From a virus (Duplodnaviria > Heunggongvirae > Uroviricota > Caudoviricetes): a DNA stretch of 64,000 nucleotides. The stretch spans positions 1-64,000 of IMG/VR virus record IMGVR_UViG_3300001528_000192, one strand, 5' to 3'. Within the stretch, counting starts at the first letter, position 1, and each line of letters starts with the position of its first letter. Shown piece by piece: positions 13,179 through 17,146 of the stretch. The translations under genes were made by a program, and so were the position numbers. The notes under the pieces are model-generated. The model was not told where the DNA came from, made no database searches, and was given only the letters and a program-made list of their open reading frames with translations.

Positions 13179-14411
13179 TTAAATCTTTAAATCGTTAAAC
13201 AATTCGTCTTCCATCCAAACTTCCGCTCCAATATGATCGCCGTTTGTCTGCTGATTAATGCTAAGTGCCCAGAGTCTCTTTATGCCTAGGCAAAGTTCCT
13301 TGGCTAATTCTGGAGGATAACACTTGTTCATAATATCAGCTAGGCTAACATAGCCCCCAGGAGTATAATACTCTTCGGCATACCTTAAGATGCCGTTGAA
13401 TATATAAAGCCATAGGAGGATCTTTTTGAAGTTATAAGTTGGACGAAGGAATCTAAACTCAATAGTTTTATTCACCTGATAACAAAGAGCATTAATGAAG
13501 TTACACCAATAGTAACGTGTTGGTATATTCCACTTTCTTTTTCGCTCTTTGTCTTCAGGATGAGCTTGGGTAAAGCTCCCGAAGAACTGCCTTCCTACTA
13601 GGTGCGAATACATGTCTTCAAAACTATTGTATCGAGCAAGCTTTTTACAATAGTCTTTCCCATTATCCTTGTACTGTCCACTTTGAAAGGTTAAAGCAGG
13701 AAGTATTCCTTCTAACTCAGATTCTAGGGTTTTGCATACAAGGTAAAGTCGAAAGATAGTATCCGTTTTAAGAGGATAGCCTCCCAAATGAACATGCAGA
13801 GAACATTCCTTATTAAAAGCAGTGTACTCTTTGAGTGTTTCTACTTGTTGATGCAGAAGAGAAATTCCTTCTCCCCCTTTTAATACAACAGTAGAATACT
13901 CTGGTCCGGTAATGGATCCATCCCTTAGAGGAATTAGTCCATCTCGATAACATATGTCCTCAGGCACATATCCTTGAGATGTTTCGAACTCCAGTCCAAA
14001 AGTATACTTTAAATATTTCGCTAAAGGATACAAAGTTTCGTGGTCTTTAATCTTTTGTTTCCCATTAAAGACATCGAAATTCTCTACAGCTTCATATTTC
14101 CTAGTAAGAATATAAGGAAAATCACCAGAACCTTTTATGAGCTGCTCTGTAAGTACAAAATCATTATCGTGATGAATAGGAGAGAAATATACTCCCCTTC
14201 TCTTACTATACAAGAGTTTCCCCTTATATAGATTCAAGTCTGTCTCGAAATAATTTTCATACCCAGTTGAACTCTTTATAAGAACTCTTACAACCCTTTC
14301 TGGTTTACTGGTATACCCAAAGATAACCTGATCAGGCAGTTGCTGGATAATAATCCTTGCACAATTTCGAGAGTTTACCCATCTTCTAGTTATTTCATCA
14401 AAGACTTGCAT
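13179..14411 (-). CDS. Putative amidoligase (Amidoligase_2-like carboxylate-amine ligase)
   Basis: The FGLEFETSQG...GSITGPEYSTV block resembles the phage-type amidoligase core. The gene is adjacent to two glutamine-amidotransferase-like genes. Confidence 0.55.
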   Translation of the reverse strand: MQVFDEITRRWVNSRNCARIIIQQLPDQVIFGYTSKPERVVRVLIKSSTGYENYFETDLNLYKGKLLYSKRRGVYFSPIHHDNDFVLTEQLIKGSGDFPYILTRKYEAVENFDVFNGKQKIKDHETLYPLAKYLKYTFGLEFETSQGYVPEDICYRDGLIPLRDGSITGPEYSTVVLKGGEGISLLHQQVETLKEYTAFNKECSLHVHLGGYPLKTDTIFRLYLVCKTLESELEGILPALTFQSGQYKDNGKDYCKKLARYNSFEDMYSHLVGRQFFGSFTQAHPEDKERKRKWNIPTRYYWCNFINALCYQVNKTIEFRFLRPTYNFKKILLWLYIFNGILRYAEEYYTPGGYVSLADIMNKCYPPELAKELCLGIKRLWALSINQQTNGDHIGAEVWMEDELFNDLKI

Positions 14412-15736
14412 TCTTCCTTAATTGTTTTAAAATTAATATCCAACTTAACTCCCTCTAAAGAGCTAAATGCTTCGTCAGCTCCTCTACCATACTTAGTAGT
14501 TCTTCTGCTTCCAGCAAAAAACTCAGTAGCGGATGTAGATGTAATCATGTTTAGAGTTCCTGTAAATGGAACCCTCTTAGTTGGAGAAGTGGCACGAAAC
14601 CACACATCCTTCTCGTGATATACACCATCAACACTCAGATACCTTATAAGGTTCTTAAACTTCTTGTTAAACTCCTTATCTTCGAGCTTACTTTCCTTTT
14701 TAAGGACTGTAAGAAATCGAAAACAGGCAACATTCTTAAGGGCAACTCCGTCCCAAAAGAAGATTTCCTTATAGCCAGTTCTTTTCGTAGCCTCATCTAA
14801 CATCATTCCATACTTAGTAAGTATTATTCTTCCATGAAGTTTCTTACCTTTTCCATGGTAAGTGTTATCTACTTGATTAGTTGAAATGAAGTTGTCATAG
14901 AGATTTCCATCACTCTCATCTAATCCGAACTCTTCCCAATATCTTCCACCATATCTAGCTGGAGTTACATAGTTAGTTTCCTTCTTCTGACAGGCATTTG
15001 CCCTTGAAACCTCTTCAACGGCAATTAGGTCTTTGCCATTAAATTCAAAGAGGCAATTAGGATTCAGAATCCAAGTAGTAAGCTTATGCCTTAATGACAT
15101 CAGATAGGAAGCGATAGAGGAGAAGACTAACTCCCCTTTTACAGGATCAACGCAGAAGTACAACGGGCGTTCATCAGTTTCCTTCTTATCCCATTTTTCC
15201 TTCTTAGAAGCCCCTTTAAAGAGAAGAATTTTTGGCTTTCCTCCACGGTAATCAGCAATCGCAAATACTGCTCCACCATTATATTCACTAAGTGCCTTAT
15301 AGCCAGAACGATAGAAAATTCTAGCCATTACTTGGGAATCAGTCATGCCAGTAATATCAATGTCTGGTATATACTTTTTAGCTAATTCCTTATAATTGTA
15401 AATAGTTCCATTATGCATCAGAACATATTCTACCTTTCCGTTAGCATTGGTAAGAACTACTGGTTGAGCTGTTGTCTCATCAATGGTTCCAACAGATGCC
15501 TTCCTACAGTGACCAAAGGCTACTGAACTCATTTTGAGCTCATTAAGGAACTTATTGTCTTGGAAGAAGCACTGGAACCACTTATCATCACCCTTTGCTC
15601 CGTACTCATAGTGACCATCAATGAAATAGCCACAAGAGTCGCCACCTCTACTATCATTAGCAATACCTAATGTGCAGAAGGTTGGAAAGTCAAAAGACCT
15701 TGAGCTTTTTGTAACAATTCCAAATATTCCACACAT
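14390..15736 (-). CDS. Class-II (Ntn-type) glutamine amidotransferase domain protein
   Basis: The protein begins MCGIFGIV, giving the Cys-1 nucleophile after Met removal, followed by a GATase_2-like fold segment. 448 aa. Confidence 0.75.
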   Translation of the reverse strand: MCGIFGIVTKSSRSFDFPTFCTLGIANDSRGGDSCGYFIDGHYEYGAKGDDKWFQCFFQDNKFLNELKMSSVAFGHCRKASVGTIDETTAQPVVLTNANGKVEYVLMHNGTIYNYKELAKKYIPDIDITGMTDSQVMARIFYRSGYKALSEYNGGAVFAIADYRGGKPKILLFKGASKKEKWDKKETDERPLYFCVDPVKGELVFSSIASYLMSLRHKLTTWILNPNCLFEFNGKDLIAVEEVSRANACQKKETNYVTPARYGGRYWEEFGLDESDGNLYDNFISTNQVDNTYHGKGKKLHGRIILTKYGMMLDEATKRTGYKEIFFWDGVALKNVACFRFLTVLKKESKLEDKEFNKKFKNLIRYLSVDGVYHEKDVWFRATSPTKRVPFTGTLNMITSTSATEFFAGSRRTTKYGRGADEAFSSLEGVKLDINFKTIKEECKSLMK

Positions 15737-15738
15737 AG

Positions 15739-16530
15739 TTACGCTAAGTTATAGTGAGTAATTAACTGTTCTGCAAGTTCAACATTACTATTGTTGATTG
15801 CTTCTTGAACCTCATTTCTATCAGGAAGGTTATAATCGCATTGGTAGGCTTTCAGAGCTTTCTGAAGTTGTTTCCATACAAAAGTCAACTTAGCTGTTGA
15901 ACCCATCATAGCACTACTGAGAACTCGATATTCAACACCATAGTCAGTTAGACGAAAACAACCAGCTTTACCATAAAGAGAGCGACGTTTCTTGTCTTTA
16001 TCCTTGATTACAGATGGAAGACCAAGAAAGGCATCCATGTACTTTACAAGGGCAAGACTTGTATCCACATTAGGATTCTCATATCCTACATGAATGTGAA
16101 ATCCAGCAGAACGTAGATTAGTTGCAGTGCCTTTAGGCTTTGGGTTAGCTTTCATTGTATAGGCATTGTAATCCACATCACAACCAAATAGCTTGGCTTG
16201 ATCGCTTTGAAGTTCTGATGTTGGTACAGTTTGAGAGGCAACACATTTAATGCCGAGGTCAGGATTCTTGCTCTTAACAAACTTGTCTATATACTCTTGC
16301 ATATAAACAATATTGTTAACAAAGTTAATTCCATCTTTAACAGGAGGAATGTTAAACTCTGCAAGAATGTTATCCGTTTCAAGTCCGAAACCTTCTGGCA
16401 TATCTTCAGACCTCCATGGATTGCCTTTTTCACCAGGGATTAATCCCACAGCGGAGACCACTTTTTTAGTTTTCTCATTAATGATAAACAATTCTGGGTC
16501 TGCACCAATAGTTACATTACGCAATTTCAT
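15739..16530 (-). CDS. Hypothetical protein inside the amidoligase/amidotransferase cluster
   Basis: 263 aa, containing IGADPELFII...HIHVGYENP. It is tightly packed between the two amidotransferase genes. Confidence 0.5.
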   Translation of the reverse strand: MKLRNVTIGADPELFIINEKTKKVVSAVGLIPGEKGNPWRSEDMPEGFGLETDNILAEFNIPPVKDGINFVNNIVYMQEYIDKFVKSKNPDLGIKCVASQTVPTSELQSDQAKLFGCDVDYNAYTMKANPKPKGTATNLRSAGFHIHVGYENPNVDTSLALVKYMDAFLGLPSVIKDKDKKRRSLYGKAGCFRLTDYGVEYRVLSSAMMGSTAKLTFVWKQLQKALKAYQCDYNLPDRNEVQEAINNSNVELAEQLITHYNLA

Positions 16531-17146
16531 TTACAAGGTCTTTTATAAGGTTATTAATCATTTTAGCGACAGGAGAGTCAGGAATCATTTCAGGGTGTCC
16601 TTGCACTGCAAGGCACTTAGGAAGATCCTTCTTATGATATAGAACAATTTCTGGTTCTCTACCACAGACAACATTAGGATCTATCCCATCTCCATCGTAG
16701 AAGTCGCTTTCAACTCCATAGGATGTGAATAGAAGGTCATAATCACCCTCTTTCAGCTCAAATGGATATTGCATCTGATGGTGAGTAGAAGTTATTTGGT
16801 AAATTTTGTTGCCGTTGGTTATTCCATGTGTAAAACCAGTAGCATGACTTGTTACATTTTGAACAAGTTTACCACCATTCATTACACATAGGAACTGTGA
16901 CCCACGACAAATACCAAGACAGACTTGTTTCTTAGGGTTTATCTTATTGAAGATACCCTGCTCATCTTGATCCCTTTTAAGATTGGAATAAGTGCTTCTA
17001 TGCTTCTTACACCCGTAAAGAGAAGGAGTTACATCTTCACCACCAGTAAATACTACTAATTGTGCATCTTCTAATTTGTTAGTGAGTTGCACATTTTCAA
17101 TGAAGTTGACGTAGTTATCAGCTCCACCTACAACATAAATCTTCAT
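16517..17146 (-). CDS. Class-I glutamine amidotransferase-like / peptidase C26-like protein
   Basis: CLGICRGSQFL supplies the nucleophile-elbow Cys, and ...GHPE gives a His near the C-terminus. Confidence 0.65.
   Translation of the reverse strand: MKIYVVGGADNYVNFIENVQLTNKLEDAQLVVFTGGEDVTPSLYGCKKHRSTYSNLKRDQDEQGIFNKINPKKQVCLGICRGSQFLCVMNGGKLVQNVTSHATGFTHGITNGNKIYQITSTHHQMQYPFELKEGDYDLLFTSYGVESDFYDGDGIDPNVVCGREPEIVLYHKKDLPKCLAVQGHPEMIPDSPVAKMINNLIKDLVNEIA

Follow-up and report, generated by a model that had tools for sequence, protein, structure and literature searches.

The phage amidoligase neighbourhood was reportedly predicted in 2009 by Iyer, Abhiman, Burroughs & Aravind (Mol Biosyst 5:1636), a study that is also said to be the source of the Pfam names of two ligase families, PF14395 and PF12224. 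Later papers, in the passages that cite this work, describe such neighbourhoods as predicted to build or trim peptide or amino-acid conjugates (PMC10580990, PMC11706807, PMC4431377), as did the first-pass annotation of the DNA analysed here, and papers from 2023 and 2025 still call the function of the system unexplored (PMC10580990, PMC11706807). Here we describe a version of this system at positions 13179-17146 of a 64,000-nucleotide window, the whole stretch analysed, which covers positions 1 to 64,000 of the IMG/VR record IMGVR_UViG_3300001528_000192, a phage known solely from metagenomes. The cluster comprises two ligases predicted to form amide bonds with ATP and two predicted glutamine-type amide hydrolases. 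Like the phiEco32/LUZ24-type system, it has both ligase families and a class-II N-terminal nucleophile (Ntn) amidotransferase clustered in one phage, contiguous, co-directional and co-occurring across lineages. It thus belongs to an already described, widespread and uncharacterised phage enzyme system, and would not surprise a specialist. As the catalytic core of this phiEco32/LUZ24-type system, the cluster would serve the ATP-driven forming and editing of gamma-glutamyl or glutamine-type amide bonds on a cytoplasmic target, a reading to which we give about even chances.

The window cluster differs from the phiEco32/LUZ24-type system in the absence of a RimK-like ATP-grasp enzyme and of AIG2/gamma-glutamyl cyclotransferase (GGCT), in a crAss-specific protein, p253, coupled upstream, and in its host, a TAG-recoding crAss-like phage of ~170 kb; unlike the enterobacterial phages, it has a bona fide C26-type class-I amidotransferase in place of an unrelated protein of ~200 amino acids (aa). 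The additions made here are modest, namely the minimal four-enzyme version without ATP-grasp and GGCT, the coupled partner p253, the targeting of active-site codons by introns in relatives, and the standard-code placement of the cluster in a recoded genome.

The interval contains exactly four open reading frames (ORFs), all on the minus strand and, in the order of transcription, of 209, 263, 448 and 410 aa: a class-I amidotransferase-like protein (GATase1), a COOH-NH2 ligase type 2 of the phiEco32 type (PF14395 ligase), a class-II amidotransferase (GAT-II) and an Amidoligase_2 protein (Table 1). The GATase1 and PF14395 ligase genes overlap by 14 nt, a 2-nt gap separates the PF14395 ligase gene from that of GAT-II, and the GAT-II and Amidoligase_2 genes overlap by 22 nt. 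The first-pass annotation, made from the letters alone, had placed four tightly packed one-strand genes here, and their boundaries proved exact. It had read them as an Amidoligase_2-like protein with an FGLEFE motif, an MCGIFG Ntn-type glutamine amidotransferase, a gene of unknown function and a Cys-His GATase1 or gamma-glutamyl-hydrolase-like protein. Profile searches supported the amidoligase and GATase assignments, and the gene left without a function is the PF14395 ligase, which strengthens the overall reading of that annotation.

GATase1 is predicted to be an intact class-I hydrolase of the C26 type rather than of the CobQ/GatD or TrpG type. It passed the gathering threshold of Pfam Peptidase_C26 (PF07722; 1.1e-15, 58.4 bits, cut-off 20.5), matched the generic Pfam GATase profile at 1.5e-6 (28 bits), and matched phrog_7218 at 7e-37. 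Its motifs are GICRG (aa 78-82), GHPE (aa 183-186) and the C26-typical HHQ (aa 122-124); the Cys-His-Glu triad (Cys80, His184, Glu186) and HHQ are invariant in seven GATase1 sequences, with identity down to 28%. The best NCBIfam match was gamma-glutamyl-CDP-amidate hydrolase (24.6 bits, far under the cut-off of 250), and the matches to gamma-glutamyl-GABA hydrolases were also far under their cut-offs. A GATase1 homologue is present in 56 phage records.

The PF14395 ligase matched the COOH-NH2_lig profile (3e-12, 46.8 bits, cut-off 25), and matched phrog_3815 over its full length (1.2e-67, residues 2-260). Across 11 sequences that represent 8 phage lineages, residues D11, E13, D53, E58, R140, H145, H147, R182, E200 and R202 do not vary, and this is the conserved acidic, His and Arg set expected of a metal- and ATP-dependent carboxylate-amine ligase.

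The Amidoligase_2 protein lies just above the gathering score of PF12224 (6e-6, 26.7 bits, cut-off 22), and matched phrog_2443 at 2.2e-11. Its catalytic core spans aa ~130-346, preceded by an N-terminal extension that varies between lineages, and contains FGLEFE at aa 138-143. The motif set ExE ... E ... HxH ... ExR is complete, and G139, E141, E143, D164, S166, E171, H206, H208, Y300, N304, E318 and R320 are invariant in eight sequences with identities down to 16%. The protein matched 1211 clusters (50% identity) at E<=1e-3; no Rosetta-stone fusion to a glutaminase was found, the ten longest of the 150 matches listed having no second Pfam domain.

GAT-II combines an N-terminal class-II glutaminase domain (GATase_6 8e-15, GATase_7 4e-10), which has the four-layer alpha-beta-beta-alpha Ntn fold, with a disordered linker (aa 257-278) and a C-terminal domain that is well modelled. 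MCGIFG forms aa 1-6, the nucleophile Cys directly following the initiator Met. Cys2, Arg30-Gly31, Arg78, Asn109-Gly110 and Asp133 are invariant in 7 lineages and 44 clade members, and correspond to the PurF-type nucleophile, the oxyanion hole (Asn-Gly) and the holders of the glutamine alpha-carboxylate and alpha-amino group (Arg, Asp). Neither the window protein nor any of five relatives has a Pfam match in the C-terminal domain, and structural comparison gave nothing worth naming either. A fused synthase or acceptor domain of known type (PRT, SIS, AsnB PP-loop, GltB) was not found in GAT-II. Since GAT-II has no synthetase domain of its own, acceptor activation, if any, must come from another protein.

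The four genes are genuine and not chance ORFs, because their pairwise dN/dS (ratio of nonsynonymous to synonymous rates) is 0.03-0.10, a sign of strong purifying selection, at a dS of ~0.8-1.3 against relatives 85-93% identical in protein, and because they are syntenic in eight related IMG/VR contigs (L006-L013, 55-176 kb), with identities that fall to 41-65%. The order p328-p253-GATase1-ligase-GAT-II-Amidoligase_2, p328 and p253 being the two genes upstream of the four, is kept in these contigs (p328 not in L012) at identities down to 25-65%. L011 retains these six genes, and its sequenced flanks contain neither the SPFH/NfeD nor the AAA-ATPase neighbours described below. No signal peptide or membrane segment was evident when the four translations were read by eye rather than with a prediction tool. 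No PADLOC model matched any of the seven cluster proteins, and every NCBIfam match of the cluster proteins fell under its cut-off, so that no functional name was gained.

Important genes typically receive homing elements at the codons that are under the tightest constraint. In the relatives, inserts fall precisely at the catalytic motifs: the GATase1 gene of L007 is split after GICR|G by an insert of ~1 kb with an HNH endonuclease, in L013 a 1.2-kb insert with a LAGLIDADG endonuclease gene interrupts the PF14395 ligase gene at SAG|FHIHVG, and three contigs have the Amidoligase_2 gene split at IPTR|YYWCNF, where two of the inserts score as group I introns (Rfam, 88 and 51 bits). The window copies of the genes are uninterrupted. 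Three HNH or endonuclease VII-like genes are scattered among the early genes of the window, the first listed in Table 1 on the opposite strand, consistent with the mobile-element load of the relatives.

In a collection of 50,697 phage records, homologues of the PF14395 ligase were found in 318 records and homologues of Amidoligase_2 (query from phage 7-11) in 314, with almost identical counts by genus (PF14395/Amidoligase_2: Pseudomonas 121/119, Escherichia 94/93, Vibrio 22/22, Aeromonas 11/11 and Proteus 8/8, among others). The two ligase families thus co-occur almost one-to-one, in effect as an obligate pair, in ~315 of the 50,697 records, and the carriers of both include LUZ24-like, phiEco32-like, 7-11-like, Zobellviridae and crAss-like phages. 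The cluster itself, used as a nucleotide query, matched none of these records. The triad of PF14395 ligase, Amidoligase_2 and GAT-II was found in the crAss-like cr108_1, Cellulophaga phi14:2, Leptolyngbya Lbo-JY46, Kuravirus IMEP8, Salmonella 7-11, Citrobacter CVT22 and Aeromonas LAh_6, and the table published for the LUZ24-like UFV-P2 places it there as well (PMC3890496). The genes are kept together in related and in many unrelated phages, in line with the neighbourhood that the first-pass annotation had proposed. In other phages, the neighbourhood usually includes a RimK-like ATP-grasp gene and often AIG2/GGCT, and in some lineages a C26-type GATase1. No RimK-like ATP-grasp gene was found by tblastn with four phage queries, and no AIG2/GGCT match, in the 64-kb window or the eight contigs. 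About 0.6% of sequenced phages carry the enzyme set, including Pseudomonas and E. coli therapy candidates and abundant gut crAss-like phages. Solving its function would give a chemistry to PF14395 and PF12224, and could reveal a new DNA, cell-wall or protein modification in host takeover; cultured phages of E. coli or Pseudomonas are the better place to address it, and the window by itself does not make it more testable than they do.

Characterised ligases of the glutamine-synthetase superfamily almost always activate the gamma-carboxylate of free or terminal glutamate, as in glutamine synthetase, the gamma-Glu-Cys ligases, PuuA/PauA/IpuC/AtdA1 and PafA. Where such ligases are paired with C26 class-I enzymes (PuuD, PauD, IpuF, AtdA2), all characterised cases known to us make a gamma-glutamyl amide and then remove it. 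The pairing of a ligase with a class-II Ntn enzyme in EgtA/EgtC likewise makes and removes a gamma-glutamyl amide. In the reading that we prefer, each ligase would spend ATP in the infected cytoplasm to convert a carboxylate, by analogy most likely the gamma-carboxylate of free or terminal glutamate, to an acyl-phosphate, which would then be joined to an amine or to ammonia. The two glutaminase-fold enzymes would act on the same bond type, either releasing glutamine ammonia for the neighbouring ligase or re-hydrolysing the gamma-glutamyl amide. In the favoured variant, the PF14395 ligase would make a gamma-glutamyl-amine or peptide conjugate, GAT-II and Amidoligase_2 would together carry out a glutamine-dependent amidation or extension, and the C26-type enzyme would remove or edit the gamma-glutamyl group, helped in other phages by GGCT. 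This mixed model is favoured because GAT-II is without an acceptor domain and its gene overlaps that of Amidoligase_2, and because GatCAB and GatDE indicate that a subunit of the glutamine-synthetase fold can take up channelled ammonia. As candidate substrates, one may consider small amines (polyamines, for example), peptidoglycan precursors, protein termini and DNA bases. Our confidence in any single step is much lower than in the general statement.

The gamma-glutamyl theme is suggested because GATase1 scores best against C26 (58 vs 28 bits) and gamma-glutamyl hydrolase models, because RimK-like ATP-grasp and GGCT genes join the cluster in other lineages, and because GAT-II keeps the Arg and Asp that hold the glutamyl alpha-carboxylate and alpha-amino group. 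The one functional hint in the literature searched comes from a directed-evolution study of a Pseudomonas phage, where independent missense mutations arose in the amidoligase and in the adjacent GAT-II-like gene in both lines (PMC11450229); because the pair was mutated in both lines, it appears to matter for infection fitness.

Several points weigh against this reading. Searches of the open literature revealed no experimental characterisation of either ligase family, and sequence and profile searches of PDB sequences revealed no solved relative of the PF14395 ligase or of Amidoligase_2. The glutamine-synthetase-like fold of both is predicted from the Pfam COOH-NH2 ligase annotation, the motif pattern and, reportedly, the work of Iyer et al. 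(2009), and a profile-profile comparison of PF14395 with PF12224 gave a weak local match around the HxH motif. The glutamate carboxylate is assumed by analogy with superfamily members, and the glutaminases may serve either ammonia delivery or hydrolysis. The clade is without ATP-grasp and GGCT (in the window, and up to 10 kb from the cluster in close relatives), and arguments from these two partners are thus indirect. The pairing by adjacency is not strict, since GAT-II adjoins the PF14395 ligase in CVT22. In 7-11 and Kuravirus, the PF14395 ligase has a ~200-aa protein as its neighbour, which was considered as a divergent GATase1 and is not detectable as one.

The gene overlaps of 14 and 22 nt, the adjacency of Amidoligase_2 and GAT-II in most lineages examined, and the complete glutamine site of a GAT-II without synthetase domain would also suit two heteromeric glutamine-dependent amidotransferases. 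Each glutaminase would dock on its neighbouring ligase and channel ammonia to the acyl-phosphate, converting two carboxylates of one target to carboxamides, with the peptidoglycan stem peptide (D-iso-Glu, meso-diaminopimelate) as the favoured target. There are precedents in GatCAB, GatDE, MurT/GatD and the AsnB-type LtsA. In GatCAB/GatDE, the glutaminase is coupled to a subunit (GatB, GatE) classed with the glutamine-synthetase/guanido-kinase fold, and MurT/GatD and LtsA amidate these same two peptidoglycan carboxylates via a class-I and a class-II glutaminase, respectively. GatCAB/GatDE and MurT/GatD resemble the phage cluster in having a separately encoded glutaminase and an ATP-using, carboxylate-phosphorylating subunit. 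They differ in that their glutaminases are of the amidase/asparaginase type (Gat) or the CobQ type (GatD), that MurT is a Mur ligase, and that tRNA-binding or Mur domains are not present in the window cluster, where a complex would be putative. Through a change in the wall, peptidoglycan amidation could prevent superinfection or too early a lysis, an idea attributed to Iyer et al. (2009), and a cell-wall and superinfection suggestion is cited in PMC10580990. Nevertheless, Mur-ligase and peptidoglycan-binding domains were absent from the Pfam and NCBIfam matches, GATase1 belongs with the C26 hydrolases and not with CobQ/GatD or TrpG, and simple amidation leaves the GGCT and RimK-like partners of other phages unexplained. 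The hosts moreover span Bacteroidota, Proteobacteria and cyanobacteria, and Amidoligase_2 and GATase genes alone occur in viruses of archaea (PMC11706807). Experimental support is lacking for this alternative, which we regard as unlikely, if worth keeping in view.

The same two enzyme types, a superfamily ligase beside a Peptidase_C26-type class-I amidohydrolase with gamma-glutamyl amide chemistry, are found in PuuA/PuuD, PauA/PauD, IpuC/IpuF and AtdA1/AtdA2. These pairs all act on small amines, which would be in keeping with a role in small-molecule metabolism for host takeover, either the gamma-glutamylation of polyamines for their neutralisation or recycling, or an amidation feeding NAD+ salvage. 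The pathways of the PuuA/PuuD type differ from the cluster in having true GlnA-like ligases, oxidising enzymes between the steps and catabolic cellular operons; no oxidase or other tailoring enzyme is encoded with the phage cluster, and the NCBIfam matches showed no sequence-level membership in gamma-glutamyl-amine pathways. The ergothioneine pathway of EgtA/EgtC is likewise distinct, in that no EgtB, EgtD or EgtE equivalents accompany the phage cluster and that EgtC (structure 4zfj) is a single 229-aa domain, compared with the extra ~170-aa domain of GAT-II. On the side of NAD+, a fragment of a nicotinamide phosphoribosyltransferase (NamPT) gene runs off the end of the window, and NamPT/PncB genes adjoin the cluster in Lbo-JY46, with a phosphoribosyl pyrophosphate synthetase, and lie 5 kb off in phage 7-11. 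NamPT is 12 kb away from the cluster in the window, and the published ORF tables of LUZ24-like carriers, as far as these go, list none (PMC3890496; PPAT/PPAY tables). Its proximity could be coincidence or an NAD link, and we see little likelihood in the small-molecule alternative.

The genomic surroundings in other phages bear on a role in DNA or nucleotide hypermodification, in which a modified base would receive glutamate, glutamine, a polyamine or a short peptide from the ligases, or have such an adduct tailored by them, as a protection of phage DNA against restriction. The clusters of cr108_1 and phi14:2 lie inside a replication and nucleotide-metabolism block, between primase and uracil-DNA glycosylase, and that of CVT22 lies just upstream of primase/helicase. 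The window cluster, by contrast, lies among tRNAs and accessory genes (SPFH/NfeD, AAA ATPase, vWA/Ro-like, OmpA-like, NamPT), not replication genes. Thymidine-hypermodification clusters (Lee et al. 2018, 2021; PMC5889632, PMC8989533) are phage-encoded too, and amidoligase and amidotransferase Pfam matches sometimes stand beside their genes, with no role given (Lee et al. 2021, PMC8989533). They differ from the window, where no 5-hydroxymethyluracil DNA kinase, aGPT-Pplase, dUMP hydroxymethylase, TET/JBP or transglycosylase was found among ~39 proteins scanned with Pfam or PHROGs in these 64 kb of the genome. We consider this explanation quite improbable.

The cluster is flanked upstream by p253 and p328. 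p253 gave no family assignment in Pfam, PHROGs, NCBIfam or PADLOC, and no match in sequence and profile searches of PDB sequences; it is a crAss-specific protein of predicted new fold. Remote homology links it to both of the hypothetical proteins that take its place in cr108_1 (hhalign 83-89%; hmmsearch 8e-8 and 9e-7; Foldseek E ~5e-8), and in Foldseek it also matches a similar protein pair of another crAss-like virus. p253 is probably a clade-specific fifth component, translationally coupled to the GATase1 gene. In proteobacterial phages, the genes directly before the ligase encode hypothetical proteins in pairs that are weakly paralogous. Sequence comparison gave no signal of kinship between p253 and these pairs, the sole hint being a Foldseek match to an Aeromonas phage protein (E 0.01).

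p328 has 414 homologues, all without Pfam domains, and a dN/dS of 0.04. It is syntenic in seven of the related contigs (L006-L011 and L013) and not in L012, shows no relatedness to p253, and possibly belongs to the module. Its tail (~aa 230-328) is probably disordered, and of the 15 aligned sequences that reach the C-terminus, 14 end in Asp or Glu. An Asp/Glu-ended tail recalls the substrates of C-terminal ligases; it may prompt the idea of a substrate role, without supporting it. The corresponding explanation is Pup-like protein tagging or tail editing, in which a ligase would join a protein terminal carboxylate to lysine or amino acids and the amidohydrolases would deamidate or remove the tag, with the acidic, disordered p328 tail, host ribosomal protein S6 or RNA polymerase as candidate targets. 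The precedent is PafA/Dop, two paralogous, glutamine-synthetase-like enzymes of carboxylate-amine ligase fold, one a ligase and the other a deamidase/depupylase, whose target is a disordered tail with Glu or Gln at its end. Other phages with the system also encode RimK-like S6-glutamyl ligases, and protein targets were predicted by Aravind's group for related phage ligases (PMC4431377). p328 is nevertheless confined to the clade and absent from cr108_1 and proteobacterial phages, and therefore cannot be a general substrate. We hold tagging to be very improbable.

A broader speculation joins several of these elements into an amide-forming machine of a new type. Predicted glutamine-synthetase-fold ligases would take ammonia from separate class-I and class-II glutaminases, or pass gamma-glutamyl intermediates to them, and podophages from crAss-like to LUZ24-like would thereby covalently modify a macromolecule (the bases of DNA, the precursors of peptidoglycan, or the tail of a protein such as p328) to escape defences or superinfection, p253 and the paralogue pairs serving as substrate adaptor in crAss-like phages. 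In this full form, the idea is rather improbable.

A terminator-like hairpin upstream of p328 is likely the upstream boundary of the transcription unit; on the minus strand from there to where the p193 gene ends (12591), a single further site of this kind was seen, at 12426-12452 within the NfeD-like gene. p193, which follows the Amidoligase_2 gene, was rejected as a module component, being absent from L009-L012, four relatives that retain the enzymes; its dN/dS of 0.16 is the highest of the block. Further downstream, an SPFH/Band-7 (flotillin-like) protein of 602 aa, with a long coiled region rich in Ala, Glu and Lys, is preceded by a 173-aa membrane protein that is NfeD-like by eye and has no family match, and this pair is kept directly downstream of the cluster in most relatives. 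On the other side, an AAA-type ATPase (phrog_10440 3e-56; weak PADLOC IetA match, 3e-7) adjoins a 580-aa phrog_850 protein, annotated as 'RNA-binding protein' and possibly Ro/vWA-like, and these two are also syntenic in the relatives.

Table 1. Positions of the cluster, its neighbours and other features (in the window, unless a related contig is named)
Feature	Position	Strand	Description
GATase1	16517..17146	-	Peptidase_C26 / gamma-glutamyl hydrolase type; first of the four transcribed
PF14395 ligase	15739..16530	-	predicted ATP-dependent carboxylate-amine ligase
GAT-II	14390..15736	-	class-II Ntn amidotransferase with uncharacterised C-terminal domain
GAT-II N-terminal domain	14987..15736	-	class-II (Ntn) glutaminase, aa 1 to ~250
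GAT-II C-terminal domain	14390..14902	-	~170 aa, no assignable family, aa ~279-448 and stop codon
Amidoligase_2	13179..14411	-	PF12224
p253	17143..17904	-	253 aa, no assigned function; 4-nt ATGA overlap with GATase1 start
p328	17971..18957	-	328 aa; conserved beta-rich body, Met/Gly/Asn/Pro-rich tail; first gene past the upstream hairpin
p193	12591-13172	-	phrog_11581, function not assigned; 6 nt downstream of Amidoligase_2 gene
Terminator-like hairpin and T run	19015..19040	-	11-bp stem, 5 G-C pairs, T-rich tail; between tRNA-Ser and p328
Inserts in L007	8618-9625, 13010-13459		
Inserts in L012	12999-13846, 8716-8919		
Inserts in L013	10429-11596, 14174-14458		
SPFH/Band-7 protein	10167-11975	-	
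NfeD-like membrane protein	11993-12514	-	
AAA-type ATPase	22013-23461	-	
phrog_850 protein	24069-25811	-	
HNH / endonuclease VII-like gene	38480-39415	+	
HNH / endonuclease VII-like gene	9272-9916	-	
HNH / endonuclease VII-like gene	26713-27330	-	
NamPT fragment	1-750	-	phrog_448 4e-94
RNase H-like gene	881-1751	-	phrog_531 3e-38
TAG-recoded region	4194-7423	-	
TAG-recoded region	40395-43646	-	
TAG-recoded region	44088-64000	+	
Terminase	48193-50553		restored by TAG readthrough
Portal	50790-52970		restored by TAG readthrough
Fibre	55687-58842		1051 aa; restored by TAG readthrough
Suppressor tRNA	39763-39835	-	anticodon CTA
tRNA genes (ARAGORN)	2130-33549	-	22 genes, densest at 26198-33549
Additional tRNA (Rfam)	23932-24004		
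tmRNA-like gene	20514-20976	-	
tmRNA-like gene of L012	6509-6998		97 bits
tmRNA-like gene of L013	5194-5524		66 bits
abiF RNA motif (Rfam)	27571-27608	-	intergenic, in the tRNA region

The host is a crAss-like gut phage with a TAG-recoding genome. Its terminase most resembles, at 44-47% identity, those of unannotated human-faecal phages; within classified viruses the closest are those of Crassvirales (26-29%). At 165-176 kb, the related contigs match in size the large crAss-like groups zeta and epsilon (PMC12386605). When TAG was read as sense, the long ORFs became ~2x longer, and the terminase, portal and tail genes were restored, with 4-28 in-frame TAGs each. In contrast to these structural and other recoded genes, the four-gene cluster has no in-frame TAG codon, and neither have any of its neighbours from 10.2 to 26.2 kb. 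Because of this, and following the usual logic for recoded phages, we infer that the cluster is expressed early or in the middle of infection, before suppression sets in. The RNase H-like gene near the start of the window appears as two ORFs under the standard code, and is probably one gene read through TAG.

The tRNA genes detected by ARAGORN, with one more from Rfam, cover most amino acids. The tmRNA-like gene (Rfam, 65 bits; gathering score 47) was not reported by ARAGORN and would be a phage-encoded tmRNA beside a large tRNA set; similar genes occur in two of the relatives. With a tmRNA, a suppressor tRNA and over 22 tRNAs in the vicinity, a tRNA-linked function of the cluster was considered and rejected: the LUZ24-like phages that carry the system presumably have few tRNAs. 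The tRNA region also contains an abiF RNA motif (50 bits, gathering score 37, E 5e-6).

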